Source: Amphiscolops sp. MND2022
Lineage: Eukaryota
Length of the DNA: 64,000 nucleotides
Assembly: GCA_964187785.1 (NCBI GenBank)
Contig: OZ076409.1
Span: 16,060,001 to 16,124,000 of the forward strand
Direction of reading: 5' to 3'
The notes under the pieces were generated by a model. It ran no database searches and was not told the DNA's origin. It saw only the letters and a list, made by a program, of their open reading frames with translations. Numbering within the stretch: the stretch's first letter is position 1; each line of letters begins with the position of its first letter. Shown here piece after piece: positions 8,226 to 64,000 of the stretch. A program made the position numbers and the translations under genes.

Positions 8226-10115
8226 CTAGGGTCGGAACCGTACGGTCTTTATTCAAAATCTACGGTCTACGGGTTTCTTCTTGCGGTCTACGGTCCTAGG
8301 CTACGGTCCTGAGTAAAAAAAACATTTGGAGAAACAAATTTCAAATTACAAATTATTCAAAATTCAATTCCTCTATCAAAATCAAACAAGTTTGCAACAG
8401 CAGTTTTTTCGGCGAATATAGGCAATGTGGTGTAGACTCGTGAAGCATTGTAACGAATGAAAAGTACCTCGGACACAACATCTGGAGAAAGTCGTGCCCG
8501 CACCGCTGTATGAATAAGTTTATGGCGTGAAAAAACCCGCTCCACTGCTGCTTCAGAAGTAGGAATTTTTCTCAAAAATTGATCGGCAAAGATTTTTAGG
8601 CTAATTGGGCTGGTCGACTCTATTTTCATAATCACCTCCAAGTATTTTTTCTCAAAGGCCTCGGCAATGCTTGGGCTCAAGTGTCTCACCCATTCAATTG
8701 CTTGTCCAATGGTTTCTTCGGAAAACAGATCAATTTCACCATCAAGAACACCAAGAAGTATCTTAGGGTAGTTTTCGACCCATGGAAGATAATCACTAAT
8801 AACAGTGCTGAGGCCTTCATAGCCAAGCTGAAAAGCTTTCGACGCAACAGAAAGTAGCTCGGAATGCAGTCTTGCCCTATTGTAATTGTCCGATTGAGCA
8901 TTGTTGAGCAACGAAATCACAGACTGCATAACAGATATAGCATTTTTTAAAATACATAGTTCACGCGTAGAATCTTCACACATCTCCCCAGCTGGTAGTC
9001 CCTCGAGTTTCCCCGACAATTCCTGCATACGGTCAAATTTGCTATTCCAGCGAGTTTCCACGAAGCGACCGATTGTTCCCTTTTCAATGTACTTAAGCAA
9101 AACTTCATCTGCCTTTTTGAGAATCGGGACAGACGCCGTTGATTTTTGACCAATCAAATTTAAAATATGTGCTCCGCATCTCAACTGCAATTCGCTTATC
9201 TTCGCAGACTCGCTTGATTGCAGCTTGACACGATCTTGCGTTATCGGCAATTATTGCAACTGGTTCGATATTGTTTTCGCGGAGCTCACTGATTACATTT
9301 GAAATCTGCTCACAAAGACGTTCAGCAGACTGTCCGCTTTTAACAAAGCTTTTCCAATAGATGGGGGCACGTCGACTAAAAATCTCGAAAATAATAAATG
9401 TCTGGTGCGCATCTTTCGTAACACTGTTTTTCCACCCATCGAAGGCAATTACAACCCGTGCATTTTCCAGTGACTCCAAAATTTTCTTCATCGCCTCTTC
9501 GTGCATTTTTTAAATTTCGTTTTTCAAGGTTTTTGCTGAACACTCAATTCTAGTTGCCCATTTTACCGCGTCGTCTTCGTAAAAATTGAAAGGCAAAGGA
9601 TGGGCACTGACGCAGAACGATAGTGCTAACTTCTGATTCTTGGACATTTTCTCACATTTTTTGTCTGACTTGAAAGATTTGGCAACACTAGGAACTGATT
9701 CCGCTTGATTTCTTCTCAAATTAAACTGCCTGATTTCCTCTGGATAGGTGGTCGCATAGTGTTCCTTGATTGTAGTATAACCAGTCTTTTGGGGATGAAA
9801 TTTGAAAATTTTAGGGCAATTCTTCCAATGGACAACACCTTGTGCAGGACAGTAATCATATAAAGTTGCATAATCACTGCTAATGCCAGACATTATAAAT
9901 CTGTAATAGATAAAAAACGGATGTTAAGAAATACAGAATCAAAAATAAAAAAATTAACGTTAAGCTTGAATTAGAACTGAACTTACATGTAAAGTGGCCT
10001 TTTCTGTGAAATATGGGCTTGCCTTTTCTCAGAAATGCGTTTTACGGTCTCAACGTACGGTCTATGGTCCCAAGGCACGGTCTACGGTCCTGCGGTCCCT
10101 AATCGCCGACCCTAG
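8226..10115 (-). mobile_element. Full-length hAT DNA transposon (1890 bp)
   Basis: Perfect 10-bp TIRs ctagggtcgg (8226-8235) / ccgaccctag (10106-10115). Perfect 8-bp TSD gcgatcga (8218-8225, 10116-10123). Clustered acggtc subterminal motifs at both ends. Confidence 0.93.
8357..9893 (-). pseudogene. hAT transposase with one nonsense codon (9510-9512) and one frameshift (~9185)
   Basis: Degenerate BED-like N-terminus, AFDGW, IADNA, RCGAHILNL (CxxH), ETRWNS and IPTSEAAVERVFS dimerisation motif. Candidate upstream intron 9901-9986 (gtaagt...ttacag on the minus strand). Confidence 0.9.
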
Positions 10116-44376: not shown

Positions 44377-46215
44377 TGAGCTGTTAAAAAGTTTGAAGTT
44401 TGGTGGTTGTTTCTTTTAGAAATATTAGTACTGACATAAGAAGTCTAAGATTTTAACAGCAGTGTCGTCTTATCTTACGCTTGGTAGCTAGCTAGTTCTG
44501 AGTACAATCTATTTCTGAGATCTCAGTTCTTGGAGTGTTGGAAGAAGACTGATCGTCAGGAAGAATTCTCAATTTCTCCAAGTAGATATATTCTATTAAC
44601 TAGGGTAGGTTTCATCAATTACAATGTGACAGCAACAGGATGAATTGGAGAAGCTTGGTACAGGATATATTAATTGAAGTTTCTTCTAGAATAATTGGTT
44701 TCTAGATTCAATTAGATTTACTAATTTCTTTTGTTAAGAGTTCAGAGTATTTCAGATTTATAAAATCTTTGAGGACATGCATCATGGCATCACAATCAAC
44801 CGGGAATTTAAAAATAAAATTACATATATGCACTTTGAGTTTAAGGAGTTCTAGAAGTTTTTGTTATATGCATGGGTTTGTTTCATATGTGTTGTACTAA
44901 AGTTGCATGAGTTTCGTTTTGTAGAGTACCATACTTAAGGAGTGAGAACAACCTAAGACGATTTGACTTCTTACGTCATAGACGATTCAATTGGTGCAAA
45001 AAGGTTCAAACAGGTTCAAGTTCTTTCAGTTTCTTTGACTGACAAGTTCTTTGAAGTTATTGTTGACAACTATTTATCGTTTCATGTTTCTTTTTCGTAT
45101 CAGCCATCGGCTTGTTTGAAAAAATTCTTTCATCAACATGAGTTAGTCAGCATTGAAAACTTTTCAAGTTGAGGAATTAAAGCGTGAAGTTGTCAATGAG
45201 TTGTGAACCAACATTGGCGGGTATGTGAACCAAAAATGAAGAAGTTTTGAAAAGTCAAGGTTGTAGTGAGAGTTCATTTTCAACAAAGGTGAAGAGTAGA
45301 GCAGAAGCAAGAGTTGAAAAAAAAACTTTGGCTATTTCAAGTTTCAAACATCTGAAAACTAGAAGTGACATTTTTCAAGAGTTCTAAAGAAAAATTTGGA
45401 AAATTTTTGGGAAGGCTTTTGAAGATTAAAACAAAGGTGTAGAACATGACTTGTAAAAGAAAATTTTTGTCCAAAAATCTTAGAAAATTTCTTGTGCTGT
45501 AAGTAGGACTTGTGTTCTGTAAAAGACGGGGAATATAGATGTATTTTGAAGTGTATAATTATGTAAGATAATGTTAATGTTCTATAGACAATACAATGGA
45601 AGGAATTAATATTGTGGTTACAAGAATAATTATGGATAGAATTTGGGAAGGATTATGGTTAATGGGGGGTAATTATACTACGATTATAGAAGATTAAGAG
45701 TAAATAAGAGTAGATAGCACTAAAGAGTAGATAAGGGTATATAGCATTATACGATATTAAAGTTAAAATTGGATAGGTTGCAAGAAGTTACAAGTTATAT
45801 TTGTTAAATTGGATTATACAGTTCAGTTTGAAAATTGAGTCAAAGTTTTGATTACAATGTTTGAATATTGTATTGGTCATTGGAGTATGAAGACCAGTTC
45901 AGGAAGTCAGCAGTTGAGGTGTGAAGACCAGGCAAGAAGTCAGCATTGGAGGATGAAGACCAGTCAAGAAGTCATCGTGGGGTGTGAAGACCAGTGACGA
46001 GGACAAAGTTTGGCAACGTCGATGAACCCAAAGTGTAGATGGATGTTGTTGACCATCGTGGGTGGGTGAAGTGAAGAATTTCAGCATGTGTAGGAGTTCT
46101 TTGAAGAAGTAATCATCAACCACATTTCGAGGCATCATCGAGAGAAGATGAAGGATTTGGAGACGAAATGCAGTCAAAGAGTGAAATAGAAGTAAATAGA
46201 AGTTTGTGTTAGAGA

Positions 46216-46668
46216 TCATTGAAAGAGAGAGTTTTGCGATGGAGGATGAGTTTGGTGTTGGATCGGGTCATAAAGTTCTAGTTTTTGAGTATACCCGAAA
46301 TCTTTCAGCATATTATTAAAAGCATCTATAGCTTCTTGGATAGCAGTACGAAAGTACTGATCCTTTGAAGTAAAGGACGAATTGAGGACGAAAACAACAT
46401 TAGATGCCGTTTCACAAATGGCAATTTTAGGTCCTTGAAGATGGATTCGCGAGTATTGCTCGAAAGTGGTTTTCTTTTTCTTTATTTGCGTGACATTGTA
46501 GAGTACTTTTAAGAAAGCGATGAGACATTTGGGCGTAATTTTGTTTTTGTGAATCTCAAGCGAGAGTTTGAAGGCCATGGTGTGAAATATGGCGGCTTTA
46601 AGACTATGCACTTTCGAAAATTCTGAAGTCATGGTTAGAATGTCGTTTGTTTCAGCATTTGGAGCCAT
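46216..46668 (-). CDS. ORF5: orphan 150-aa accessory protein
   Basis: ATG-initiated, normal-complexity ORF on the element's sense strand downstream of ORF4; no family recognised. Confidence 0.5.
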   Translation of the reverse strand: MAPNAETNDILTMTSEFSKVHSLKAAIFHTMAFKLSLEIHKNKITPKCLIAFLKVLYNVTQIKKKKTTFEQYSRIHLQGPKIAICETASNVVFVLNSSFTSKDQYFRTAIQEAIDAFNNMLKDFGYTQKLELYDPIQHQTHPPSQNSLFQ

Positions 46669-47085
46669 GATGACGAGAGTTTGAAGAATGCGAAGAAAGA
46701 GAAGTTGGGATGTTCTGAAAGAATTTGGATGAAGGAGGAGGAAGAATGGATGTTTCTAAAACAAAGGAAGTGTAAGAAGAATGACAATATCGAGTCAAAG
46801 ATGTACAACAAAATTTGGAGCTGGAATGTATCATATTTAGTGTTGTGCTAGATTGTCTTGTATGTCTTGTATTGTAGTGTTTTTAGTAGAAATAGTTAGT
46901 TTTTTGACATGTACTGTATGAAAAATTAGTGTACTTAAAAAACAGTCCTGAGATTTCATTCAAAAGCAAGAATTTACTTTAAAGAAGTAGGTAAAAATGA
47001 AAATACCTTGTAGAATGTGCCACAGATGTACCATAGAATGTACCAGAGAAGAAAAATTAAAACTTTATAATACCTGTAGAGGAGT

Positions 47086-48380
47086 TTAATGAAGATTAGT
47101 TGAGTTAAAAAGAGTAGTTATAGTTTCCAAAGCAGATTGAATTGCTTGGGATGATTGAGTGATGCGTTGAGAGTCTAAATCGAGTGTCTGAAGTAGTTTG
47201 TGTGTTCTGTCGTAGCAGTGTAGTATATGTGTAAGTGTTGTGATAGATGTTTCAGAGGAGTTTCGTTTATAGGGTTCAAGTAAATTTGTTATGTCGCGAA
47301 GTGTTCGGTTGTTTAATACAGAGGAAAGTTTGTCAGGAGTGTTTTTGATAGGAGAAGTGTATGATTTATGTTCAGTTTTTTGTTCGGCTTGTACCATGAA
47401 AGAGATAGTTTTGGCAGAGATAAAGAGAAGTTCGTTGTAGGATTATGTTTGTTTGTAGAGTGCTGTATAGTACGTTCTATCTTTATCATCAAGTGGAGAA
47501 GATACTAGATGTTTAATAACAGTAAGAGGTTTGGCAATTTGAGTAGGAATGTTGCAAGGCAACAAAGCATCATCGTAATGTATAAGATATTCTTGAGGTA
47601 CAATAAGTGGACGAGAAGTATTGTTATATGGAAGCAAACAGAAGTATTGTTTTATAGGGTCATAGTTTCGAAGGTAGCCTGTTATACAAGAGTGGTCTAG
47701 AGTGTACATATTTGTCATTGTGAACGGTGATGTATATTTGTAATTGACAAAAATGTGATTTTGTGGTTTCGTGTATTGTAGGAATTTAGTATATGTTTGA
47801 TGATGAGTAGCTTTTTGTGCTATAGAGAGGAAAGATGGATCAGATTCATCTGTTTTGAGATCGTAGATAGATGGTCGCCATTATCGAGCCAATATTGGTA
47901 TGGACCCATTATTTTGGAAGCAATGGATGTAAAGAAGTCTTGATTTTTGTCATACAAGCGAAATGAATAGTCTGTAGGATGCATGTATAGAGAAGTTAGT
48001 TGTGCTTTAAGGACGAAATCGTCTGTAGAAAGAATTGAGATCAAATTATCATCTCGATTCGTGCAAAGTGAAATTTTCGAAGGTATTGAAGGAGGATATA
48101 TTAGCGATGAAAGAAAGATTGGATCTTTCATAATTTCATATCGTTTTTTTGGAGGAGGTGGTGTCGATTGTGTGTGATCAGTATCAGCTTGTGAAGGAGT
48201 AGGTTTTGAATTTTCATGTTCAACTTTTGTATGTTCCATTGGTTCAAGAAAAAATGGAGGTGTTTGTTCAGAAGTCTCAATATAGAGAACAGGAGAATTA
48301 TTCGAAAGAGGTCTTGTTAAAAGATCTGTTGGGGTTGCTTGTTCAAGCTGTGTTTGTAGGTCAATTTGTGCTTGTGTCAT
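47086..48380 (-). pseudogene. ORF4: orphan accessory gene (~430 codons) broken by a frameshift (~47880) and a TAA (47443-47445)
   Basis: ORFs 47443-47718 and 47086-47397 share a frame that is open from ~47880 and overlaps the end of ORF 47820-48380; same codon bias as pol and env. Confidence 0.65.
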
Positions 48381-48642
48381 TGTTTTAAAACATCAACAGT
48401 CACAGTGTTATCTATTCCAAGAGGCCTTAGCACTTTAAAGTTAACGTACTATAAATTACACTAACGAGTGGATTTATCAACTTTGGTTGAAGAGTTTTTG
48501 AAGACTGTTATTCTTAGAGATGTATTATCGGGTTGAGGAAGATGAACTTCTGCAAGAGTTTCGTGTGGTGAAGGAGTAGCAATTGTGAAGAAATAGTAGG
48601 CAAGTGTTCTGGAAGAGAGTTACAGAAAAACTGAGAGAGAGT

Positions 48643-51351
48643 TCAAGAAGATGGAGGAGGAAAAAGATAGTTTATTCGCGAATAGATTTTAATTGGTGTA
48701 TCCGTAGTAGAGTTGACAGGATTGTTAATTAAAGTGTCATGTTGAGTAGTTAGATTGTCATTCGAGTGAAAGTTTTTATGAGTATAAATAGGAAGTGGAG
48801 GATGTTGAACAGGAGAGAAAGGAAGTGGAGTCGTTTTATGGTGAGAATTGTGGTGTCGTTTCGGAAAGAAGTTAAATTTAGGAAATTGAATTTTGTTAGG
48901 TCGTTTAGTATAGAAAGGTGGAGGGGAAGTAACATCTGTAGAATGGTTAATTAAATTTGGAGAAGTGTCAATAAAGTTATCTAAGGATTTGGATTTCGAA
49001 AGTGGACTTTTGGGTTTTTTGTTTTGAGTCTCATGGAGGTCACTGACCATTCTTGCTGTAAGAACATTAAAAAAACCATGTGCAATAGAACTAAGTAAAG
49101 TAATATTATTTTTAAGATTATATTTAATGGATATTGTTTTGTAAAGTTTAACAATAAGTGTAAGAGTAGCTTGTACAAAACGAAATGTAGAAAAGTATAT
49201 GCCACATTGTGTAAGAATGTAACAAAGGTATCCAAAAAGTGCAATAAAAGCATCTGAAAACCATGTAGGTGTAAGAAGAGGAGTTAAATTCAAGAGTTTA
49301 ACATGGAGTCCTATGCGTAATGAATTGTAAGGATTACCTGAGTCTTGAGGGGAATCTGCATCGTAATTTGGAGTATTAGATGAAATGAATGAATAACTAA
49401 GAGCTTTGCCTAATAGTTGAAGTGTAGAGTCAGAATGTTTAGAAAATAAGATACGGTTCCAAAATTGATCAAGTTCTGCATTTGAATATATACCAGCATC
49501 TTGGGCTGTAAAAGTATTGGGACGTATTGTAGTTTTGATTTGTGAAGGTGTAAACATTAGTGGAGGTTTACGTTTAATAGGTTCAGGTCCAAGAATGTAA
49601 AAGTCTTGGTCATCTGAGTCAGGATCTAATTCAATAATGTTACGTGGATTATTATCACATGTAATTGGTGTAGCATAATCATAAGTTTGTCTTGTAATTG
49701 GGTCAACGTACATTAAGGTGTCTTTGAAGTGTATAGGTATACGGTCAAAGCATCTATCTGCTTTGTATAAAGGAGATAAAAAATGAGGACAGTCATAAAG
49801 CCAGGCGGTTGAGCCTTCAACGTATAAGAAATTACTTCTATTACCGTTTAAAAGGAAACCAGCAAGTTGAGGGTTTTGTACTGACATTGCGAGTATTGTA
49901 AGGAGTTGGTTTCGTTCTAATTCACATATTGTATGGAGAGTATTTAGTTCTTGTACGGTCATTGATCGGAAAACATGGTTAATAGTGTAGTCTACTTTGG
50001 TGTTTATATGTGCGTCATAATCAATGGTAGCAAAATTGTTGGAGACATTTAATGCAGGGAATACAAATTTATTATTTGAAGTGTCCAATACTATTTTACC
50101 GGAAATATATTCATCAATCATAGAATGAGGATTGGGTTGTCCTGTATGCATATTGAAACCATCGGTGTAGGTAACAAAAAGGTCTGAATATTGTGTAGAA
50201 TAGAGAGGGTCTGGTTTACCACAAAAGGTTTGTGCTGTAGGGAAGACTTCAAATCTTGAAAGACTCGGATTATTTGGATGTTGTGTATGAGGAGCATGAA
50301 CATAAGGATGTTCTGTACCTTTGATACCAGAAGTGGCTTTAGATTTTATTGAGTGTGGTGAATGTACAAAGGAGTCTGTTTCAATCCAATATCTATCTTC
50401 AATTTTAGTCATACGTCCAATAAAGTCCTGTAAGGTAAAAATTAGGCAATAATCGTCATTGAACCAAACAAGAGTGAAAGGAGTTTTTGTTGTGGGTTTA
50501 CAGAAACCATCTGCAAAGTAGCAGGGTAATGTATGTCCATCTATGATCATGTCGTTAGATGTGTCATCATATGTAAGTTCTACTTCAGAAATTTCTAGTC
50601 GCCAACTAACTAAGTTGACTTCGAATTGGTGATGAGCAGGGCAGTTGTGATAAGGGTTTCGAGTAGGGTCATATATCCAGTTTTTATCAGCAGGCATAAA
50701 TGTAAATGTACCTGTATACATTTTGTTCAGTTGATATACAGTAAAAGGGGTTTGGTATTGTTCTAAACGTTCTTGAAAATAATGGTCTTCTAGGAGTGTA
50801 AAAGTTTTATTATAATGATGGTTATTTAGTATTTTATCATTTGTACCATTTAAATGTCGTATAATGTTTTTACATTCTACTGGATCAAGAGTAACAGGGA
50901 GTGGTAATGTATTATGATTCCATACGGTTCTATCGACACGACGATATTTTACTGAACCTTGAAAGCATATTTTCCTTTCTTTCTTTGCATAAGCAACACA
51001 TTTGAAAGCTTTGATGCGTTTAGCTTTTGCGCGTACATATACACGGGCTTTAACACTTGCATGTTTAATGTCAGAAGGAGCTTCAGTGCATTGTTTTACA
51101 TTAAGTAGATTAAATTGTCTCAAATTGTGTTGTTTTGCACAGTCATAATGAGAAACCATGAGATTTGTAATATTGGGATCGTCTGATGGAAGATAGTTTT
51201 CAGTGTCAGAAGGTGTTATGGGTATAGAGAAGGTGATGTTAAAGAAATGTAAATAGAGTATTAGATTTGTTATGTAAAAGATTGTGTAGGGTTTAAAAGG
51301 ATGTGGTATATTTAAGACCGGAATATGGGTTACAGAAGACAATTTTGCCAT
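48643..51351 (-). CDS. env: Envelope glycoprotein, class III fusogen-like (herpesvirus gB / chuvirus G-like), 902 aa
   Basis: N-terminal signal-like hydrophobic stretch; Cys-rich ectodomain (HYDC...C...AFKC...ICFQG...EC; CELER...NPQLAG...EGSTAWLYDC...CFDRIPI...DPITR...PITC); N-glycosylation sequons; C-terminal TM region and long tail. Confidence 0.8.
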   Translation of the reverse strand: MAKLSSVTHIPVLNIPHPFKPYTIFYITNLILYLHFFNITFSIPITPSDTENYLPSDDPNITNLMVSHYDCAKQHNLRQFNLLNVKQCTEAPSDIKHASVKARVYVRAKAKRIKAFKCVAYAKKERKICFQGSVKYRRVDRTVWNHNTLPLPVTLDPVECKNIIRHLNGTNDKILNNHHYNKTFTLLEDHYFQERLEQYQTPFTVYQLNKMYTGTFTFMPADKNWIYDPTRNPYHNCPAHHQFEVNLVSWRLEISEVELTYDDTSNDMIIDGHTLPCYFADGFCKPTTKTPFTLVWFNDDYCLIFTLQDFIGRMTKIEDRYWIETDSFVHSPHSIKSKATSGIKGTEHPYVHAPHTQHPNNPSLSRFEVFPTAQTFCGKPDPLYSTQYSDLFVTYTDGFNMHTGQPNPHSMIDEYISGKIVLDTSNNKFVFPALNVSNNFATIDYDAHINTKVDYTINHVFRSMTVQELNTLHTICELERNQLLTILAMSVQNPQLAGFLLNGNRSNFLYVEGSTAWLYDCPHFLSPLYKADRCFDRIPIHFKDTLMYVDPITRQTYDYATPITCDNNPRNIIELDPDSDDQDFYILGPEPIKRKPPLMFTPSQIKTTIRPNTFTAQDAGIYSNAELDQFWNRILFSKHSDSTLQLLGKALSYSFISSNTPNYDADSPQDSGNPYNSLRIGLHVKLLNLTPLLTPTWFSDAFIALFGYLCYILTQCGIYFSTFRFVQATLTLIVKLYKTISIKYNLKNNITLLSSIAHGFFNVLTARMVSDLHETQNKKPKSPLSKSKSLDNFIDTSPNLINHSTDVTSPPPFYTKRPNKIQFPKFNFFPKRHHNSHHKTTPLPFSPVQHPPLPIYTHKNFHSNDNLTTQHDTLINNPVNSTTDTPIKIYSRINYLFPPPSS

Positions 51352-52531
51352 ATGTGATAATGGGTATATTCAGATCGCGTTCAAATTCAATATGTACGAC
51401 TTCAAAAGGAGCAGGAGAAATTTTGTGTTCTATTTTAGAAACGTGAAATATTGGGTGTGGATTTAATCCTTGAAATTTGACTTTGACTTCAAATTTAAGT
51501 TCTAGATTTGGTGTCTGAAGACGTTTTAGTTCTGTTTCCTTGCGTTTGTGAGATAAGAGATCGTTGTTATTAATGAAACGTTCTGCAAGAATTGGAAATC
51601 GAGGATGGTTTTGTGGGTCGTAGATGGTTATACCATCGACTCTAAGTGGATAATCAGCAAAATTTGGAGTTGGGGGTCTAGAATGTTCTGCAGTATAGTA
51701 TTCAGGTAGTCTAATATGTGCAGGAACAGGAGTAGGAATTACTACTTGTGAAAAAAGGTCTCCTGATAAAAATGCAGTCTGGGCGTTAGATGAGAGTAAT
51801 GAAGCGGTTTCAATGCCAGAAGTAAAATACGGAGATTGAAAGAGTTCTGAAGATGGTGTGTCAGAGGATAACGGTTGAGAGTGTTGTCGTACAAGTCGTA
51901 ATGCAGAATAGCTAGAGAGAGCGGAAAAATTGAGTGTTGAAGTGTCTGTACTAAGTCTACGTGAGGGGAGATCGCGAAGATTGTATCGATGTTTAGGTAC
52001 AAAAAGTGAACTTGTGTCTTGTGATGGAGCGTAGTCTGAAGTATTGTCTAGGAGATCTGAGAGTGATGTAGAAGGTTTTCGAAGGGGTTTTAATGGGGGA
52101 TAGAGTTTTGAAGAAGTAGTACTGAGTTCTGATGGTAATTTCAATGAAGGTAATTTTGTATATTCAGTATCAGGGATTTGTACAAGATTAAGTTGAGGTT
52201 GCAGTCTAACAGTTTTTATAGCTGTAGGATGTTTGTAAGTTACGTATTGTTCAACACTTTCAGGATTTGGTATGTGTATAATAGGAGTGTTAATAGGAGT
52301 TTGTTGAGTACGAGTGTTTATAGGAATTTCAGTTATAGGTGGTCTATGAAGGAGTGATGAAGAGGCGGTTTCAGAGACGTATGATCTTGGTCTTTTAGAA
52401 GGAGTAGTAGGAGTTACATTACTAGAGTTTGTAGTGTTTGATACTAAAGATTCGGGTGTAGAAGGAAGACTTGGAGCTGATGGAGATATATCAGAGGAAG
52501 AATCCAGGATTGTTGAAATGTTTTCAACAGG
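51293..52531 (-). CDS. ORF2: ~412-codon Ser/Pro/Thr-rich open frame without any ATG, carrying PSAP and LYPPL motifs
   Basis: The ORF-track 283-aa ORF (TTG start) stays open upstream to a TAA at 52532-52534 by manual translation; it overlaps the env start. Confidence 0.7.
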   Translation of the reverse strand, partial: PVENISTILDSSSDISPSAPSLPSTPESLVSNTTNSSNVTPTTPSKRPRSYVSETASSSLLHRPPITEIPINTRTQQTPINTPIIHIPNPESVEQYVTYKHPTAIKTVRLQPQLNLVQIPDTEYTKLPSLKLPSELSTTSSKLYPPLKPLRKPSTSLSDLLDNTSDYAPSQDTSSLFVPKHRYNLRDLPSRRLSTDTSTLNFSALSSYSALRLVRQHSQPLSSDTPSSELFQSPYFTSGIETASLLSSNAQTAFLSGDLFSQVVIPTPVPAHIRLPEYYTAEHSRPPTPNFADYPLRVDGITIYDPQNHPRFPILAERFINNNDLLSHKRKETELKRLQTPNLELKFEVKVKFQGLNPHPIFHVSKIEHKISPAPFEVVHIEFERDLNIPIITYGKIVFCNPYSGLKYTTSF

Positions 52532-52617
52532 TTATCTTTGAGATAACTTGTTATTGGTTATATTTCATTTAACTGGAGTGACTAGTTTTGAGTGAGCCAG
52601 CAGATAGAATGATGGAA

Positions 52618-55600
52618 TTACAGTTGGGAAGGTGTAATAAAAAGTCTATAATCTAATTTGGGTTGTTGTCGTAGTTTATAAGTGGTTTTTGTGGTTCTGT
52701 CAATTAGAGGAGGAAGTGAAGTTGTTTGGTTGTTAGAAGAGTGTCTTGATCTGTCACTAGAGACATTAGTGTGAGGGGTATTAATTATATGTCTATATAA
52801 GGAGTTGTCATTGGTTGAGGAAGTTAAAGACTTGTCATTGGATGTTATAGATGGTGTATTTTGATTGAACGTAATAAATGATGGTGGTGTCACAAATGTT
52901 TGAGAATCTTCTTCAGACAAGGATTCGTCTGAGTTAAACGGAGAAGAATCACTGTTTGCATATCTGGTTGTTTGTGGAATTTGGATTTGAGTTGTGTCTG
53001 AAAAGCGCATAAAATTACGCAAATGTGGATATAAGAGTGGTTCTTTAGGGTAATATGGAATTAAATGATTTCTATGAACGTGTACTGTAGAGCCATCTTG
53101 TGCAAGTAGTTCATATGTAACATCTGATAATCTATCAAGAATTTTGTATGGTCCAATCCGAAGGGGTTTGAGTTTGTCAGAAAAATGAACATGTGTAAAA
53201 TTACGTTTTAAAACAAAGGTACCAATAGGAAGGGGATTACCTTCGTGGTAAGTTTTTGTAATGTATGCGTGTGAATTAATTTTTCGTAGGGTGTTTTCGT
53301 ATACTGTGGAATAAATTTGTAACATAGCAGTTTCTACAGCGAGAAACCATTGGGGAATGGGTTTTGAAAGTGTTTTATAGAAGAATGGGTTTAAATCTGA
53401 TTTATCATAATGAGAGTGTTCAGGAAGTTGAGAACAATAGCGTGAAATACATGTTTTGGAGGTATCGCGGTTAAGGTTTAAATCAAATGTGAGGGGTATT
53501 CTGGGTCTAGTGTGGAAAACAATTTCGTGAGGTGAAACATTGAGTTCTGAAAGTGGTTGTGAATTATGTCCATAAGCGTACATATGGACTTGAAATGCCC
53601 AATCTTTAGGTGTGTCATGTAGGAACATTCGAAGGTGAGTACCAAGATTTCTGTTTTCTACTTCAACAAGGCCATTTGTCCAAGGAGAATAAGCCGTTCT
53701 AGGAGAATGACGAATTCCCATAAGTGTACAAAGGTGTGCCATTTCTTTATTAACATATTCTGATCCACGATCAGTGACAAGGTATATGGGTGGTCCAAAT
53801 TTAATAATCCAATGGTGTAGGAGAGTTTTGATAGCAGTCTTTGCGTTGTTTGATTTGATGGGTACTGTAACAACAAAGTGACTAAAAGCGTCAATTATTA
53901 CGTGTATATAAGATTTGTTGTGAGAAGGAGGATTAATTGGTCCTTTAGTTTCCATTGAAATTCGGTAGTTGAAAGATGGAGCATGTTCTGAAAATGATTG
54001 TGTAGGAGCAGTTTGAATTTTCATATTGAAGTGTTTGTTACGTTGACATTCAATACAGTCATGTATGAAAATGGAAAGCCATTTTTCAAGGAATGGAATG
54101 TAGTAATATTGTTTGAATGTATTATATGTAATTTTCATACCAGTGTGAGAGTGTTCATTGAGTTTGTTAAAGACAGTTTTGAACATGCGAAAAGGAAGAC
54201 ATATACGAATAGTGTCTTGTACAAAATTTGGAGTAGAAGATTGGTTTGTAACAGTAGGATTTGTAATATATAGGCTAATAAGGTTTGTGGATTCGTCAAT
54301 GAAAAGTTGTGAGAATCTTTTGTAGTAGACATGTAAAAATGGAGTACCAGTGATAAGAGGTCTTATAAATTCGGGTTTTTCATTGTTTAATAACCAAGAA
54401 TAAACAGTTCTAAGAACCGGATCTTGGAATTGTTGTTGTTGAAGAGTTTTTATGTCTAATGAATAATCATCTGGAAGAAAAAAACCTTGAAAATAGTTTT
54501 TGTACTTGAAAAATGATGTATCATAGAAAGGTATAATGTGTTGACAATGTGTGAGAGAAGGTAAATTTGGTTGTACATTGATTGCAGAAACAGATTTTTG
54601 TGAGGTAATATGAGTTAATTGGTTAAGAGTAGAAAAATTTTCTGTTTGTAATGTTGTGTCTTGTAGGAAGGAAGAGTCAAATTTTGGAATTCTGGTGTAT
54701 ATATGATCTTCGTCATCGCTTGTAACATCAGTATCATTAAGCAAGAGAGATTGTTGATGAAGGGTTTTATTGTTCTTTTTTGTAGGTGTCTTAAATTTGG
54801 TTTGAAAAGGAGTTACAGATTTGAATGAGAAAGATTGTAACGGTTTTACAACAATGTCATTTCCTTTGTCATTGATGCGAATAGAGAATTGGTCTGTACC
54901 ATAATCAGCGAGAATTGGGTGAGAGTCATGTTTTTGATGAGGTAAAATTTCTTCATGTTTAAATAGGTAATGTACAGGTTTGAGAGTGTTGTCTTGTAAT
55001 AGTGCAAAATCAATTTGTGGTGGAAGTTGTTTGTGTTTTAATTGGTTTAATTGTAATTCAGCTTTTGTGAAGGAGCGACTCAACATATAGGCAACAGAGA
55101 GATTTTTTCCAGGGGTGTGAATTATCTTGAGTTTTGAAAATTTTGTCAATTGCATTTGAGCTCTGTAGAAACGAGGGCTGAGATTACCTTTCTTTGTAAA
55201 ACAATGTAATAAAGGTTTGTGATCAGTGAAAATGTGTATTGGATGGGGAGAACCTATGATAAGAAATTCATAGATTTGAAGTGCGTGTACTATACCAAGG
55301 AGTTCTCTATCAAGTGTGGAGAGTTTTTGTTCTTGTGGGTTAAGTATACTAGAGTTGTACGATATGACTTTCATTTTGTTTTGTTCACTTAACTGGAATA
55401 AGACAGCGCCTAATCCAATAAGGGAAGCGTCAACTGTAATGAAAAATGGATGTTTTGTATTTGGTATTGTTAATTCTGTTTCAGAAGTGAGAGACATTTT
55501 AAGTTTTTGGAAGAGACTTTCGTGTTCATCTGTCCATTTCCAAGGAGTGTTCTCATTTAAAAGATCGTAAAATGGTTTGAGGTTAATATGTAATTTTTCA

Positions 55601-58600
55601 ATAAATTTGGTGTAAAAATTGAGTGCGCCAATGAAACTCATTAGGGCAACTTTGCCAGTTGGAGAAGGGATTTTATGAATAGCTGCAATTTTCGAAAGAA
55701 TTGGTTTAATTGTATTGTAACCAATTTCATGTCCAAGAAATTTGACTTTAAGAAGCATGAAAAAGGATTTTTCAGGAGCTAGTTTAAGATTGTGTTTTGT
55801 ACTAATAAGGTGTAGTTGTTCTATGAGTTGGAACATGTGTTCTTTAGAGTCTGATAAAAGTAATATATCGTCTATATAGACAAGAGCGAAACCTTGTTCT
55901 ATGAGGGTTTAAAAGAAGGTAGACATTTGTTTTGTAAAGAAGTTTGGAAGTCCTTTGAGACCATAAAAGCCTCGGATGAAAGCAAAGAGTTTATCTCCGG
56001 AGGAGAAACTAGTAAGTTTTATAGTGTCTTCGTCAAGAGGTGTATGTGCATAGGCATACATAAGGTCAATAGCGGATTTGTACTTTTTGTTTGCGCGTGC
56101 TAATTGTGGAGCAAGAGGTTCAATAGTCCAAGATTCATCAGATTGTTCTGTATTGGAATTAAGGTGTCGAGCGTCTAATACACATTTTATTGTATCTCCC
56201 TTGGGAATTATAATAAGAGGGTTTAAATAAGTTGTGCCATAAACGGGTTTGTCTTGAGGGGAAGAACCAATTTGTTTGATAATGTTATATTTTTCGAGTT
56301 CTTTGAGAAGTACGTTAAGTTTGTCTCGGTAGTGAATAGGGACTTTGGAAGGACGTTGTGTTATAAGTTGAGCATTTGGTTTAAGTCGTATACGAAAGGG
56401 TGTTGAAATTTTTCCAACATAGTTTTTATGAGTTGCATAACATGTTTTATATTTGAGTAACATATTGCAAAGAGTAATGTATTCTGTATCTGTAAGGTCA
56501 GAAAATTGGAAGTTAAATTTATTAATGAATTTTAAATTTTCAGAAGTGTATGGTAAGGAAGGAAAAATGCGTTTTTCAGAAGTGTGAGAAGTAGGTTGAA
56601 CGTTTTATAAAGGAGAAGTTTGATTTGGAATGTCATCATTTGTCATATAAATTTGATGTAGAGAGAATTGAGGAGGGGGGGTTGTAGGATCATCATATTG
56701 TACAATATAGTTAGTTTGTGGAAGTGGTTCTGTAATATCAGGATGATAAGTATGAGTAACATTATGTATTAAAGTATTAATGTCGTTAACTTGGAAGAAT
56801 TTAGGTTTTTCATTAGTAATTGGAACTTCAATGTATCCAATATGTCCTGTAGGTAGTGTTGCAACATGTTTCGAAGTGTTCTGAATAATAGTTGCACAAA
56901 TGTCTGGTTTGTCATCAGTAAATACTTCAATAAAGTTAAAATTTGTACGAAATTTGGTAGCAAAATAGGTATGAGGTACTGAAGGGAAGAAGTGGTTTTG
57001 TGGTGTAGTTGTAAAATGAAGATTATGATAATTTTTTATTGGAAAGTGTGCGATTTTTGAAGACTTGGGTTTTAGACGTATTTGAGTTTTTGAGTTTATT
57101 CTATAGATGTAAGAGAAATATGGATAATCTTTGGATAGGAGTGTTGTGAACTTTGTATGGTTTGGGTGTGTTTTTGATTGATATTTAAATTCGAGTGTAA
57201 AGTCTTGTATGTTTATGTTTTGTATATTGTCTTCAAAGAATGGTGTTCCAAGGATGTTGTATTTGATATCAGCTACTGCAAAAGGTACTGAAAAGTAACG
57301 GGAGTTTTCATCAATAGTGGTGTTCGAAATTATATTGGCATAATGTAAAATAGGAACTTCAGTTTGGTTTGCAACAGTTAATGTTTTGGAATTTCGAGTT
57401 GGTCCAACATCAGAGGTGTGATTTGATCTGATATCTAGAAGTTTTGTGAGAGTTATATATGTTGGGTAATTTAGTACTGAAATGGAAGCACCGCTATCTA
57501 GAAGAAATGCAATTTCTAATCTAGATGGGTTATCTCTTTGTACTATAATTGATGGTGTATGTACATATAGTGTATAAAACCAACTTGTAGGTGTGACAGC
57601 ATTTGCCATTGCTGTTGGATGGTACATGTGTACTTCAAATTTTATAGGGTCAGTTTGGTCTTGTTGTTGTATCATATTAATTTTATTTTTGGAATTTGAA
57701 TGTGAGCGAGATCTAGAAAATCTAGAGTCTCTTGGTCTTGAAGGTGGTCTATATGAATTTGTGTATTTTGTGAATTTGTTGTCTCTTGAATAGGAGCGTG
57801 ATCTGTATCTAGGACGAGAGTTTTGTCGATATGGGGATCTATAAGAAGATCTGTAAGGAGAACGGTAAGATCGAGAATCACGTTTGTATGTATCATATCT
57901 TGATCTAGAGTAGTGTGGAGGAGTGGTACTTTTGTCATAACGAAATCTATCTCTATCTCGAGATGTAGAACGGTATCGGTTTTGTGGATAATTTCTGTTA
58001 TAAGAGTTGTCTCGTGAGGTACTTCGATTTCGGTATCGATTATCATATTGTTTTGTTCTATCATTGGAAGGAGAACGGAAGTACTGTACAAATGATTTTT
58101 GTGGAGATTTTGATCGAGCATATGCTTCTCGTTTATCTTCATCATCTCGTTGTTTTTTGAAACAAGCAGAAATGGAGTGATTTGTTCTATGGCAGTATGA
58201 GCAGTATTTTTTATAGGCAGGTTTATTTTTGTTATTTGGGTCTTTAGGTTGTGTATACATAAGTTGTTCTTGAGATGAATGATCAAGAGTTTGAGTGTTC
58301 AATTGTTTTGTAATATTATTAATTTCAAGTGCAAGATCGTGTGTTCTGATTTTGTCGTTTGCAATATCTTCGGCGTCAACAAGTTTTACTAATGTATGAA
58401 AAGGGATTGAAGGTTCTAGAACAGTGAAAGTGTGTTTTACTTGTCTTTTATTTGCAAAATCTTTGAGATTCTTTGGAAGTCCTTTTGTGAAGATTTCATT
58501 ACATTTAAGGTTAATAGTGGATGCATTCTCATTACACCAGCCTTTTTCAACCAGTTGTTGAACTTTGAGTGCAAAGTGACGTACTGTTTCATTATCTTTT

Positions 58601-60816
58601 TTAGGTAAATTAAGGGCTTCAACTTGAGCATAGTAGGCGTTCTTTTGTGATGAGAATTGTTTTTTGAAAGCTTGTTCGAAAGCGTGCCAATCATGTTTAT
58701 AGGTGTCGTTTAAACAAATGTACCAGCTGAGTGCTGTACCTGTTAAAGAGCATTGTATGAAAGCCATGCGACGGGCGTGCCAAAATTTATATTCATGTTC
58801 CAATGTAGGTTGTAAACCTAGGGAAAATGTGGCACGTGCTTCAATATGTTGTAAATATTCTTCAGGTGTATAATTGTGATCGAGTCCATCAAAAGGTTTA
58901 ATGGGTTCTGATATAGAGGTAGAAGAATTAATATATGTTGGATGTGACATAGGGTTAGGAGTTATAGTAGTTGGTGGTGTTGTGTTATACGTAGGAATGT
59001 TTGAAATGTTAGTTAAAGAGGTAGTTGAAGTGTTTTGGAAGTGAGGGTTTGTTCTAATTGTTGTTGAAGGAGGATTTGATATATGAAATTGAGAAGTTTG
59101 TAATGTAGGGTTAATTGTATTAGATGTATGTTGAGAAGAGAGAGTATTTAATTGGTTTGGAGTGTTGTAATTTATCTGGGCTTGTTGTGGAGGATTTGGA
59201 TTAGTACTGGTGAGACTGTAAGATAATGGATTAGTTAATATAGGTTGTAATGGAGGTCGAGAAAGATGTCTGGCAGTTGTATAATTAGAGGATGGGTTGG
59301 AATGAATTGTGTTAATATTTAAGGTAGGTTGTGTAGTTTGTACTGGATTAGTTTGAGCTGGAGTATAAGTTGAAGTTTGTATTTCAGAAGATGATGGTGG
59401 AGTTGGTGTGTGAAAATGTACTGTATTAGTATTCTGTGCAATATAGTGTGTATTTGATGAGCTTGGTTGAGGAGAGTTATGGGTGTTGATCTGAGTTGAG
59501 AATTGAGGTGGATCAGGAGGTGGATTATAATTTCGGGGAGATAATATTTGTGTCTGAGAGGGTTGTGTAATATTAGTATTAGAAGTAGATATCATGGAGG
59601 TATTGTCTTGGTTGATATTTGAAGTATTATCTTGACTTTGGTTTGTAATGTCGTTTTGTGTGATATTGTGGGTAGGAATTATTATACGATTTGAATCATC
59701 AGTTATTGTAAGACTTTGTGTATTTTGTACTGTTTCTTCAGAGAATTCTGATGTATTGTGAATTGTATTGGATTCAGAAGGATTTGGTTGTTGTATATCA
59801 GGAGCTTGTAATTGTGGTGAGTATAATAGTTGTTCTTGAGGAGAATCAGGATTGTGAAAAATATTCGCAAAAGCTTCTTGTTCTGAAGATTCTTGTTCTG
59901 ATTGTTCTGATTGTTGTCTTGTATATAAAGGTTCAACACTAGAGGTTTGTTCTTCAGGAGTTGTTTCATGAGAAGTATCAGATGTAGTAAAAGGTCTGTT
60001 ATCTGATGTTTCAGAATGTTCAAGTATAAAGGTAGAATCTAAATTTATTTGTTCAAGATGTGTAACGTTTAATGAAGTGAGATCTCTATAATGTAAATGT
60101 TTGTTTTCGTTTTGTATGATGTAGGGTAAGAGTTCTGTATGGGTCAATATATGAGGGAAGTTAACGTAGGCTTGTTGATCTTTTTGTTCCCAAATTAGTT
60201 GATAGTTAAAGCTGAGAAGCTTAAATAAGAATTGTGTAAAAATTTTGACTTGTGGTATTGTATCATCCGTAAGGATAATGTTGTTAAAGAATCTGTATTG
60301 AAAATGTTTGATTTGTACTATATCTCGTTGTAACCAATAATGAGGATTATTATGTCGTTGTACTTTTGTGTCAAGATCTGGGACTTCGAAATATTCAGAT
60401 CTGTGTTTTAGTTCTTGTAAATGAGAAGGACGATAAAGTGGTGTGTCTTGGTTTTCATTGAATTCGATGAGTTTTTGCATATATGTGTTAAAAACATCTT
60501 GTATAGAAAGTGTAATATTTTTTGGATGTATAGTTCTATGAAATGTTCCAGAGTTTATTCCTTTGACTGGGTTAAAAATAACTTGAAAAGGGGTTTGTGA
60601 TGGTGTTATATCAAGTGTTTTATATCGAATATAATATAGATAAGAATCAGAATGTTCTCGTACTAATGGAATAGTATGTAATATATAAGGTTCTGTTTCA
60701 AATGGTAATGGGTTTGTGTACTGAAAGATAATGTTATTTAGGAAAGGTGTTACATCTTGTATAAGAGATCGATTTTGTCTTTTTTCAGTAGTGAATGTAA
60801 ATGGAGTGGGAATCAT
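52618..60816 (-). pseudogene. Single-frame gag-pro-pol (~2730 codons) with two in-frame TAA codons (56605-56607, 55909-55911)
   Basis: The three ORF-track ORFs share one frame. Capsid-like PFDG...WY...FKKQF; CCHC knuckle CSYCHRTNHSISAC (58162-58203); protease LLDSGAS (~57490); RT VLDARHLN and YIDD (55867-55878); RNase H TVDAS/DRELL/FTDHKPL; IN HSHTG...CIEC, TDRGSE, NGLVE and a GPY module. The order PR-RT-RH-IN is gypsy-type. Confidence 0.95.
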
Positions 60817-61060
60817 TATAAGGTATTAAGTTTGGTTAGTACAATAAGATTGCCATAACGGATAGATGTATCGGAAAAGAAGATATTTTGTATTGAATTT
60901 TGAATTATATGGTAAAATTTGATCTATAAATACAACTTGTAAGAAAATAGTAAGTGCAATACTTATAAAAAGAAGAAATGGGTTTTGTATATATTGAATA
61001 AGTATATGGAAGGTGTGGTAGATACTAAGTAGTCCAAAAAGGGGTGTTGGCGCCAGTCAT

Positions 61061-61474
61061 CAGAAAGCAGAGAAAGTCGATTTGGAACATGCTGGTTGAG
61101 AAACAAGAACTTAAAACTCTTCGAAACTTAGATGAAAATTTGAACGAAAACCTCACCTTGCTAAAGCGAAAACCCCCCCAGTCGGGATTTTCTCTACAAC
61201 TATTAACCATAGAGACTTGAAACTTGGTACACATATGCAAGTACATAATACGGACACACCGGCTAAGTTTCAAGGTCATTCCCCCCTTATAACCCCCATT
61301 ACCCCTCACATGTGTAGTATTCAAGGTCATTGAGACAAAAATGTAAACATTGCTATTTACCCTTCTGACCACATTAGAATGCAGCTCTGTTGAAATTGAT
61401 GATATTTACATAGTGTAAACATGCTTCTGAGCCCACCTGACCAACATGCCAAAACCACCACATTCTCTGTTTAC
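61061..61474. mobile_element. Possible small non-autonomous element with imperfect terminal inverted repeats
   Basis: cagagaaagtcgatttggaacatgctggtt (left) resembles the reverse complement of gaccaacatgccaaaaccaccacattctctg (right); base composition breaks from the gypsy-like element. Confidence 0.4.
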
Positions 61475-61553
61475 ATAGCCAATAACTTTAATAATTCACT
61501 TAAATGTCATTTATTTATACAACATATTTCAACTTATATTTGCTTATATTTAC

Positions 61554-61964
61554 TGTAGAATTGTAAACCACATTTATACCATTATTAGATAGAGATTTTC
61601 TCCACTGAATAGCTATAGAATAGTTGGGTCTTAGGACCAAGAGACTAATTAATCAACTTCTCAATCTTCACAACTTTTCGCTAGAGTCAGAGCGACTAAG
61701 TAGCTACTCTCATAGTTGGAGAGCCGGAGCGCGTGAAGATACTGTGAGGGAAGTGTGTGCAGGATCACATCGGATCCAATTCAGTGCAAAGAGGAATCGC
61801 AGGAGATTCCACGGGTCACATCGGACCCGCCAGCCAAAAGATACAGTCCTTTAAACAAGAAAACCAGGATTTGTTTAGTGACGGTCCACAGCACTAAGCA
61901 ACGGATCAGGGCGGCGTAAAGCTTGTCAAGCCTCAGCGCAGGATAAGGGCAAGCAGCCGTTACA
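61554..61964 (+). repeat. 5' LTR of a BEL/Pao-like retrotransposon
   Basis: Begins tgta (61554, alternatively 61562), ends gttaca (61964) and is followed 2 nt later by a TGG-initiated PBS. The partner LTR lies outside the window. Confidence 0.7.
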
Positions 61965-61966
61965 TT

Positions 61967-62057
61967 TGGTCCGCCGACCCGGACAACTAGTTGGTCCGCC
62001 GACCCGGACAACTCGTTGGTCCGCCGACCCGGACGAATCGTTGGTGGACGACCCGGA
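61967..62057 (+). promoter_or_regulatory. Primer-binding site tggtccgccgacccgga (tRNA-Tyr-like), three perfect copies plus one degenerate copy
   Basis: Copies start at 61967, 61992, 62017 and 62042 (25-bp period). The reverse complement ends ...ggcggACCA like a tRNA 3' end. Confidence 0.75.
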
Positions 62058-62142
62058 CTAGAAGAAGAAGACGACTCGCTGGTGGACAACTGAGAAGATT
62101 GCCCAAGAAGAACAAGTGTCTGGATCTTGGAGTTGCTGATTT

Positions 62143-62458
62143 TGTGTCTCTGGGAGATTGGGCTACTGTGTCTCTGGGAGATTGGGCTATTGTGTCTCTG
62201 GGAGATTGGGCTACTGTGTCTCTGGGAGATTGGGCTATTGTGTCTCTGGGAGATTGGGCTACTGTGTCTCTGGGAGATTGGGCTATTGTGTCTCTGGGAG
62301 ATTGGGCTACTGTGTCTTTGGGAAATTGGGCTATTGTGTCTCTGGGAGATTGGGCTACTGTGTCTCTGGGAGATTGGGCTATTGTGTCTCTGGGAGATTG
62401 GGCTACTGTGTCTCTGGGAGATTGGGCTATTGTGTCTCTGGGAGTTTGGGCTATTGTG
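62143..62458 (+). repeat. 24-bp minisatellite (13 units) with alternating 48-bp dimer
   Basis: tgtgtctctgggagattgggcta(c/t); the c and t variants alternate. Confidence 0.95.
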
Positions 62459-62492
62459 ACTTTGGAACTAAACTCAATCGACAATAGAAGAG

Positions 62493-64000
62493 ATGGCAGA
62501 ACCAAAACGGTTCGATATCAACAAAATTGAAAACTTTCTGAAGAACTCTGCTGACAAAGCCCAAACGTTGAGTTATTGGACTGCAGCTGTTGAACACGGT
62601 AAGACTGTCAAAGAAATTGATGAGAACCTAGCTAGAAATGTTGACGACAAGCAGATAGCAGATTTACTGCTAAGACGAACAGATGCCATAAACAGGAGGG
62701 ATCGGCTCATTAAGGCAGTCGAAAACGCGATCAAAGTCAAGTATCAACCGCAGATACCCGAAATCTTCTCAACAGTGAACAAAGAAATGCAGAGCCGATT
62801 GGCTGAGTTGCAGCAGCAAAGCTCTAGCGTTGGAAGGGTACAAATGCTGATGTCAGCATTGCAAGACGAAAATCAGATACTAAATTACTTGGATCTTGAC
62901 GAAAAGAAACGTGCTATTGATAGACTAATGGATAGCAACAAAAAGTTGCGGGAAGATTCAATCGCAAATGGCAAAATTGTCGACGAAGAAGATTATGCTG
63001 CAGCATGTCAAGAATTGCTGCAGAAACGGTCTGACATTAAAACGAAAATTGAAGATCTGCTGAAGACAGGAGAAGGAGGAGCCATTTTGCGAAGCCTTGA
63101 AGACGCAGAACAAAGACTAGCAGACGTTCGCGCAAGCGTAGCCGCAGACAAATCAAGAAAAAATGGCACTTCACCACAAAAGGAGCCGCAACCAGACGAT
63201 GAGCAAAAGGAACATGATGGTCACAACGCGGAAGACAGCCAAGAGCCAAGAAATGGAGCTAGATCATTGCCAATAGAAGAATTGAGCATACATTCGCGAA
63301 GTGAAAGAGCCAAAAGCAACAAGACGTCTGTGATTTCAAAAACATCAAGCGCAAGACGAGTTCTACACTTGGAGCTAAAAGCTCTGAAGGAGCAAGAAGA
63401 ACTGCAATCCCGCCTGGAGAAACTGGGAAGAGAAACAAAACAAAAGGAAATGGAAATAGCAGACTTGCAAGGTGAGGTCGCCCGCAAGGCCAGAATTGCA
63501 GAAAAGGAAATAGAACTGGCGAAATTTTCAAGTAGTTGTGGCACCAGCTTGCGAAGTATTTCACCAGTCGAGTCACCAGACGACAATCTGACGAAAGTCT
63601 CAGATTGGATGGACAAGACCGAAGAAGCTGAAAACGTGGCATCGCCGAATAACGTGCCATCTGTATACCAGCAAACGTCCGCCTCAGCACCAGTGATTAC
63701 AGTACGATCAACTCATGAAGGACAACGCTCCGGGCTAGTGGGGGACTTGAAACTCTCCGTGAAACCGACCATATCCACAGAAGCCGCTGTGCGAGGCATT
63801 GGAAAGGACAGAACAAAGACTGTCATAGATGTTATCAGTCAAAGAGCAACAGCACAACCAGAAGTGAAATTCGCCTCATCGAAGCCGTCGATGACTCTCA
63901 GTGCAGAACAGATTGGGTTACCGCCTACGTCAGGAGGCATCCCGAGTGGTGCATTTCAAGTGCCACAGCTTGAGAACACGCAGAAGCCGTATCTGCCTCG
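62493..64000 (+). CDS. BEL/Pao-like gag N-terminus, apparently open to the window edge (absent from the ORF track, consistent with no in-window stop)
   Basis: ATG at 62493: MAEPKRFDINKIENF...SVISKTSSARRVLHLELKALKEQEEL...TKVSDWMDK. Coiled-coil plus Ser-rich pattern typical of BEL gag; follows the LTR and PBS. Confidence 0.7.
   Translation, partial: MAEPKRFDINKIENFLKNSADKAQTLSYWTAAVEHGKTVKEIDENLARNVDDKQIADLLLRRTDAINRRDRLIKAVENAIKVKYQPQIPEIFSTVNKEMQSRLAELQQQSSSVGRVQMLMSALQDENQILNYLDLDEKKRAIDRLMDSNKKLREDSIANGKIVDEEDYAAACQELLQKRSDIKTKIEDLLKTGEGGAILRSLEDAEQRLADVRASVAADKSRKNGTSPQKEPQPDDEQKEHDGHNAEDSQEPRNGARSLPIEELSIHSRSERAKSNKTSVISKTSSARRVLHLELKALKEQEELQSRLEKLGRETKQKEMEIADLQGEVARKARIAEKEIELAKFSSSCGTSLRSISPVESPDDNLTKVSDWMDKTEEAENVASPNNVPSVYQQTSASAPVITVRSTHEGQRSGLVGDLKLSVKPTISTEAAVRGIGKDRTKTVIDVISQRATAQPEVKFASSKPSMTLSAEQIGLPPTSGGIPSGAFQVPQLENTQKPYLP

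Follow-up and report, generated by a model that had tools for sequence, protein, structure and literature searches.

The 64,000-nucleotide (nt) stretch analyzed here (the window; Amphiscolops sp. MND2022, contig OZ076409.1, positions 16,060,001 to 16,124,000) carries an open reading frame (ORF) that is very probably the envelope gene (env) of a recently multiplied, 18-kb Ty3/gypsy retrotransposon family in a likely acoel, encoding a predicted class III fusogen that likely lets particles enter other cells. An env of the glycoprotein B (gB) type on a gypsy pol is already known, and what is new is the host group, the scale, the accessory genes and a putative module of CUG initiation and late-domain motifs. 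Our literature search, with Repbase and preprint supplements outside its range, returned no report of an env-bearing gypsy element in acoels or of an ORF with a CUG start ahead of a retrotransposon env. That the host is most likely an acoel (Xenacoelomorpha) follows from its mitochondrial cox1, read with the invertebrate code, to which the nearest named sequences belong to the acoels Symsagittifera (75%) and Baltalimania (73%), every other named match being at 65% or below, among them the acoel Paratomella at 62%. The family extends gB-type errantiviruses to the Xenacoelomorpha, a deep animal branch, and, because the published survey of such elements (PMC13524379) leaves Xenacoelomorpha out of its genome list, with no acoel-related term in seven of its supplements, it is a direct test case for the claim of a Precambrian origin. 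The family is young and very abundant, with env roughly one-to-one with reverse transcriptase (RT), so that acoels become a system in which to ask what part a class III env plays in a retrotransposon.

The env frame (48643-51369, minus strand) comprises 908 open codons, the first ATG of which, at 51351, opens the 902-amino-acid (aa) uninterrupted ORF described in an earlier sequence-only reading. All motifs quoted in that reading are present in the Env translation, which contains YDCAK..C, CELERNQLLTILAMSVQNPQLAG, GSTAWLYDC, CFDRIPI and DPITRQTYDYATPITC, together with 16 cysteines, 11 N-glycosylation sequons and a long Pro/Ser/Thr-rich tail; a furin site (R-x-K/R-R) was not found in Env. Its predicted anchor (aa 702-720, Table 1) is the sole 19-residue window with hydropathy above 1.5, the N-terminal apolar stretch staying below that threshold. 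Env matches Pfam family PF24664 (Monjiviricetes_fusion) with an E value of 3.5e-23 and 81.9 bits against a cut-off of 27. A single-sequence AlphaFold prediction proved unusable (predicted local distance difference test, pLDDT, 32), and a model of residues 71-720 built from an alignment of 45 relatives was taken instead (mean pLDDT 65, predicted template-modeling score 0.43), which features a long central helix at residues 381-425. In a Foldseek comparison with the PDB, herpesvirus gB accounted for 32 of 32 among the matches listed (best E 2.4e-12), and against BFVD the top matches were chu-like, xinmovirus and qinvirus-related glycoproteins (E 1.5e-26 to 7.6e-24, 11-15% identity), with the first herpesvirus gB at rank 23. 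VIA-align placed five gB entries first (Z 7.8-9.4), followed by rabies and Chandipura G, and fitted gB domain IV to the model with a Z of 9.0 and a root-mean-square deviation (rmsd) of 3.4 Å across 155 residues. Three results count against too firm an assignment. The model is of moderate quality, 172 of its 650 residues having a pLDDT below 50; whole-chain template-modeling scores are 0.25-0.32 to solved gB (rmsd about 17 Å), which leaves the domain arrangement of Env uncertain, and at most 0.45 to viral models; and a sequence-profile search of PDB sequences with Env gave no match. From one model, three structure comparisons and the Pfam match, Env is predicted to adopt the class III (gB/chuvirus-type) fold, and, as modeled, it lies nearer the chu-like/xinmovirus glycoproteins than herpesvirus gB. 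The comparison of an AlphaFold model with known fusogen structures by Foldseek, which the sequence-only reading had proposed, thus returned a gB-like answer. Glycoproteins of the Jingchuvirales and Xinmoviridae and herpesvirus gB have the Pfam family and the predicted fold in common with Env, at an identity of merely 8-15%; unlike viral gB/G, Env is carried by a retrotransposon and ends in a tail of 130-190 aa with a PPxY motif.

The element that carries env is a Ty3/gypsy retrotransposon of about 18 kb, in which a long terminal repeat (LTR) is followed by a leader of about 1.1 kb, gag-pol, ORF2, env, ORF4, ORF5, a further stretch of about 1.4 kb and the second LTR. Its single gag-pol frame encodes a long N-terminal region, Retrotrans_gag, a CX2CX4HX4C knuckle, a protease motif, RT (YIDD), RNase H and an integrase with H2C2 and SH3 parts, in this order, with Pfam matches to RVT_1, RT_RNaseH(_2), Integrase_H2C2, rve, SH3_Tf2-1 and Retrotrans_gag. 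The best PDB match of gag-pol is Ty3 Gag-Pol (E 3.7e-39; foamy virus 2e-10), and the pol backbone is, as judged from these sequence matches, of Ty3/gypsy type. The earlier proposal of a class III fold on a gypsy-type pol is supported by this match together with PF24664, Foldseek and VIA-align. No match to the BEL/Pao markers Peptidase_A17, DUF1759 and DUF5641 was found on the element, and the same scan finds all three on a BEL/Pao retrotransposon nested within it. Anakin and other BEL/Pao elements reportedly carry a chuvirus-like glycoprotein, as Dezordi is said to have described in 2020; the glycoprotein class is the same as in the present family, whereas the backbone here is Ty3/gypsy.

The same reading had also suggested that the combination reflects an independent capture. 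As something new this is not supported, since gB-type env on gypsy has been published as widespread and ancient: according to the available part of Chary and Hayashi (eLife 2026, PMC13524379), env of the HSV/gB type (HSV, herpes simplex virus), homologous to the chuvirus-like BEL/Pao glycoprotein, stands beside gypsy pol in many phyla, and the association is argued to be old. Relatives with 44% identical RT carry such an env as well. The Env ectodomain matches 1,950 representatives at E<=0.001, and of 12 metagenomic loci, ORFs were read in four; two of these metagenomic contigs combine a gypsy pol (RT 44% identical) with an env core 34-44% identical and extra ORFs. No relative was found on viral contigs. 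Had an acoel gypsy element captured a chuvirus-like glycoprotein recently and within its own lineage, the nearness of the Env model to chu-like/xinmovirus G rather than herpesvirus gB would fit; we consider such a capture improbable, given the layout common to four subfamilies at 51-80% Env identity, the pol-env linkage on the two metagenomic contigs, the 1,950 representatives, the identity to viral G of just 11-15% and the ancient association argued in the survey. A point against the reading favored here is that no homology could be detected between ORF2 or ORF4 and the extra ORFs that the metagenomic relatives carry. As to those ORFs, locus L169 (4492-8416) has, between its pol and its env, ORFs of 295 and 1,032 aa, locus L162 (9651-12095) has two ORFs after env that are 29% identical, and L168 also has extra ORFs; accessory genes look common in this clade.

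Family size and age were assessed on 20 siblings fetched from at least 150 listed, all 150 of which were preselected for a near-identical env core. LTR pairs are 99-100% identical in 19 of the 20 siblings, a matching 4-bp target duplication is found in 17, the length is 17.8-18.2 kb in 17, and gag-pol is one unbroken frame of about 2,730 codons in nine. Genome-wide, a degenerate env motif hits 3,143 sites (control 0) and an RT motif, which may also pick up other families, 3,147 sites (control 3); among the first 100 env-motif sites, 73 are accompanied by an RT site 4.5-9 kb upstream. Supposing that every one were full length, the motif sites would make up about 5% of the 1.07-Gb assembly, which for these sites is a maximum. 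Three further subfamilies in the same genome, with Env 80, 59 and 53% identical to that of the window copy, bring the total to at least four (A to D, 51-80% Env identity between them), and each of the three has at least about 35 copies at >=97% identity among 50-63 scored; two copies of each were fetched, with the same layout as the window copy. The family is thus young and recently multiplied, with thousands of motif sites. At one locus (G000:C9:7861989-7899080) three env matches lie 18,204 bp apart, a spacing that suggests head-to-tail tandem copies.

Between subfamilies, the ratio of nonsynonymous to synonymous substitution rates (dN/dS) of env is 0.07-0.23 in pairs with computable dS, and that of ORF2 is 0.08-0.47, with the higher values where dS is near-saturated. 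Subfamilies A and B compare at 0.02 for RT, 0.09 for env, 0.13 for ORF4 and 0.16 for ORF2. These data show env, ORF2 and ORF4 to be under purifying selection, with the reservation that dS is near saturation in comparisons with subfamilies C and D. The selection on env operates in the transposing lineage and not on the window insertion. As the sequence-only reading had noted, pol and ORF4 of the window copy carry stops and env does not (gag-pol has two in-frame stops, at about 56605 and 55909, and ORF4 one stop and two frameshifts), and that reading had offered chance or retention by the host as reasons. Breaks were counted with natural sibling frames as reference. In the 10 closest copies, from 40 scored, env has 0.31 and gag-pol 0.35 breaks per kb, with env unbroken in four of the 10; in 20 younger copies, counted without the reference copies and without the env core used for preselection, the figures are 0.075 and 0.126. 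Env decays at the gag-pol rate, so that its intactness in the window copy, where zero breaks have a chance of 0.28-0.38, is put down to chance. The comparison of stop density between env and pol across copies that had been suggested accordingly finds breaks alike, and of the two reasons offered chance is borne out and retention is not.

A stronger form of retention, in which the host turned the env of the window copy into a domesticated, syncytin-like gene as pol and ORF4 decayed, would account for zero breaks in 2.7 kb of env next to five in gag-pol and ORF4 together. A first count of private changes also leaned this way and away from chance, with nonsynonymous to synonymous changes at 11:12 in env versus 34:15 in gag-pol (p 0.12). 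Seven synonymous env changes proved to be common to more distant copies, six of them in one block, which suggests recombination, and after removal of the changes shared with other copies env (10:5) and gag-pol (33:11) are alike (p 0.52). This result, the matching break rates and the four of 10 close copies with intact env, together with LTRs of the window copy that differ at just 6 of about 410 sites and the presence of a BEL/Pao element between its 5' LTR and its genes, largely refute domestication, which we rate as highly improbable. The window copy is a decaying insertion with env unbroken by chance.

ORF2, upstream of env, has no methionine codon and no membrane segment; its N-terminal two thirds are Ser/Pro/Thr-rich, its C-terminal 130 aa or so are conserved, and in the window copy it has no breaks. 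A methionine-free open frame of 412-488 codons lies between pol and env in all four subfamilies. A CTG flanked by a purine at -3 and by G at +4 occurs exactly once in each of the four ORF2s, located at or just before the onset of conservation; in gag-pol, taken as control, 10 of 771 leucine codons are CTG and none has this context. All 30 subfamily A copies and five of six copies of B-D retain the CTG; that one of two subfamily C copies is without it counts against the proposal. The run from the CUG to the start of env contains 2, 3, 2 and 1 ATGs in the four subfamilies, opening frames that all have at most 17 codons, and the pol-env interval holds three ATGs where 11-12 are expected. Because the CTG and its context are conserved and the run to env is poor in ATGs, we infer that ORF2 is initiated at the CUG and that env is reached by leaky scanning. 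ORF2 is, as far as its sequence goes, probably translated from the conserved CUG; that a single subgenomic RNA would yield both ORF2 and Env, through leaky scanning over a weak CUG start, is a proposal for and against which we see equal weight. Such an RNA could begin at an internal promoter by analogy with some Tor elements of Oikopleura, whose env RNA is described, in the text available, as arising from an internal promoter after pol (PMC4402516). A comparable arrangement is reported, in the part of PMC3791421 available, for sobemovirus ORFx, a conserved AUG-less ORF with a predicted near-cognate start such as CUG, which, as proposed for ORF2, lies upstream of a gene whose start ribosomes reach through leaky scanning; unlike ORF2 it belongs to a plant RNA virus, and the analogy is mechanistic only. 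The sequence-only reading, in its account of the element, overlooked the conserved CUG of ORF2, as well as the continuation of the element beyond the window.

ORF2 also contains two late-domain-like motifs, PSAP and [LI]YPxL (Table 1), each expected 0.03-0.07 times per ORF2 after shuffling, figures that are merely descriptive because the motifs were picked after the alignments had been viewed. Two further points tell against a role in budding: ORF2 of subfamily D has no PSAP, and tyrosine-based sorting signals can match YPx[LIV] too. All four subfamilies have PPxY in their Env tails, from which PSAP and [LI]YPxL are absent. The host genome yields ALIX-domain matches above the Pfam cut-off. In retroviruses, PSAP-type and LYPxL-type motifs are the TSG101- and ALIX-binding late domains, according to the accessible text of PMC12789967. 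ORF2 might, on a tentative reading of these motifs, act as a cytosolic budding adaptor that recruits the endosomal sorting complexes required for transport (ESCRT) through PSAP (TSG101) and LYPxL (ALIX), with PPxY contributed by the Env tail. Our literature search found no account of the budding of invertebrate env-bearing elements, and ORF2, with its putative CUG start, leaky scanning and late-domain motifs, would be a specific, testable answer to how such elements bud. Within the tails of 18 distant Env relatives P[TS]AP is present in five (0.11 expected) and YPx[LIV] in 13 (1.1 expected), the enriched tails including P0198, P0201, P0207, P0212 and P0225; this enrichment may hold for the Env of gB-type retroelements in general.

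The same data may be read otherwise, with Env real and ORF2 made by splicing or frameshifting onto Gag-Pol, the motifs unrelated to budding and spread perhaps mainly intracellular. ORF2 starts 80-350 nt past the pol stop, ORF2 and the integrase tail have an RYNLR-like motif in common, and the ORF2 motifs are short and within a proline-rich region, all of which would suit this alternative. A splice acceptor at the ORF2 start was rejected, however, no conserved AG acceptor being present where conservation begins; a GTRAG donor common to the subfamilies was not found, and the conserved item is a rare CTG codon with its context. We regard this alternative as rather unlikely and keep to translation of ORF2 from the CUG. 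In its widest and most speculative form, which we doubt as a whole, that proposal would make the family a lineage of complex and virus-like errantiviruses, accounting for as much as about 5% of the genome of an acoel, in which ESCRT late domains have shifted from the Env tail, their place in distant relatives, to a CUG-initiated matrix-like protein that is cotranslated by leaky scanning with a class III fusogen, and in which plus strands are primed without a polypurine tract.

Compared with known systems, the family most resembles the HSV/gB-type ancient errantiviruses, which in the available text of PMC13524379 have a Ty3/gypsy pol, gag-pol-env order, a gB-like ectodomain with C-terminal anchor, an optional furin site and near-identical multiple copies. 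It differs from the elements of that survey, as far as described there, in its three extra ORFs and 18-kb length, in its thousands of motif sites versus one to hundreds of copies, and in a pol-env gap of 1.27 kb, which holds ORF2 and exceeds the 1,000-nt prefilter of the survey. Tor elements are likewise marine, gypsy-like and env-bearing; the part of PMC4402516 at hand describes no methionine-free ORF before env, whereas ORF2 occupies this place here. Burro of planarians, judged by the accessible text of PMC6431247, is also giant and gypsy-like, with thousands of copies, env homology and accessory coding; it is longer than 30 kb and has its env between gag and pol, in frame, whereas env is separate and after pol here. 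Troyka elements, for which the available text of PMC12440569 gives CG..CG termini, a 3-bp duplication, CX2CX8-10HX4C and no env, were ruled out as the identity of the present element, which has TG..CA, 4 bp, CX2CX4HX4C and env. The acoel genome paper (PMC6451197) assigns 28% of its assembly to gypsy, and the word 'envelope' is absent from the portion available.

The coordinates of the features are collected in Table 1. The copy in the window is complete, with the 5' LTR located about 7 kb past the window end, behind the nested BEL/Pao insertion, which disposes of an initially considered loss of this LTR; the two LTRs show 6 differences in about 410 sites, with the GTCT target duplication at both ends. 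Family LTRs are 401-419 bp long with TG..CA termini. The primer site TGGTGCGACCACG is present in 16 of 19 copies and pairs with host transfer RNA (tRNA) 3' ends, that of subfamily A pairing with tRNA-Val(TAC) over 13 nt and with tRNA-Met(CAT) over 11 nt. Matches to the primer-site core number 508 genome-wide, 500 of them on one strand, and from 35.59 Mb on G000:C12 there is a dense tandem array of tRNA-like 3' ends matching this core. No polypurine tract was found before the 3' LTR (44794-44820 and the same junction in B-D), where all four subfamilies have a T-rich run, an A-rich run and CCGG. A polypurine tract at this position is usual, not universal; its absence, although the family is clearly transposing, is treated as a variant feature and no bar to Ty3/gypsy membership. 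No Pfam match over the cut-off was obtained for the Gag N-terminal region, ORF2, ORF4 or ORF5, and profile searches of PDB sequences with ORF2 and ORF4 gave no match; ORF4 has 338 homologues, with no named protein among the 120 matches listed. Sense-strand G is just 4-14% across the element, with a GC skew of up to 0.59 (window 44000-61000). A frame of 200-246 codons over the Arg/Ser-rich nucleocapsid part of gag (57672-58298, minus strand) recurs in all four subfamilies and is probably a by-product of Arg/Ser codon repeats.

Table 1. Features of the window copy and of the insertion nested in it (window coordinates)
Feature	Position	Strand	Basis or remark
3' LTR, 418 bp, TG..CA, T-rich run and CCCGG before it	44377..44794	(-)	LTR comparison; GTCT at flank
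ORF5, 150 aa	46216..46668	(-)	61% identity in subfamily B, 15-20% in C and D
ORF4, 430-495 aa in siblings, broken in window copy	47086..48392	(-)	no family match
env, 902 aa, predicted class III (gB/chuvirus-type) fusion glycoprotein	48643..51351	(-)	Pfam, predicted fold, composition
PPxY motif, Env cytoplasmic tail	48910..48921	(-)	4/4 subfamilies
Predicted Env transmembrane anchor, aa 702-720	49192..49248	(-)	hydropathy only
ORF2, 404 aa from putative start CTG 52507-52505 (A-3/G+4)	51293..52507	(-)	overlaps env start
[LI]YPxL in ORF2	52091..52105	(-)	4/4 subfamilies
PSAP in ORF2	52472..52483	(-)	3/4 subfamilies
gag-pol, single frame	52618..60816	(-)	Pfam domains, frame reading
Nested BEL/Pao retrotransposon in the leader, LTR about 61045-61964, runs past window	61045..64000	(+)	domain scan

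The nested BEL/Pao element is young (LTRs 99.2% identical), lies on the opposite strand to its host element and contains tandem repeats of 24 and 25 bp at 61966-62532. Elsewhere in the window, segmental repeats of 4.4-7.1 kb are interleaved with a 104-bp satellite at 16200-36700, and a separate repeat of about 1.43 kb occupies 39000-44100. Broken frames at 8357-9923 (minus strand) resemble what we take to be a hAT-type transposase.

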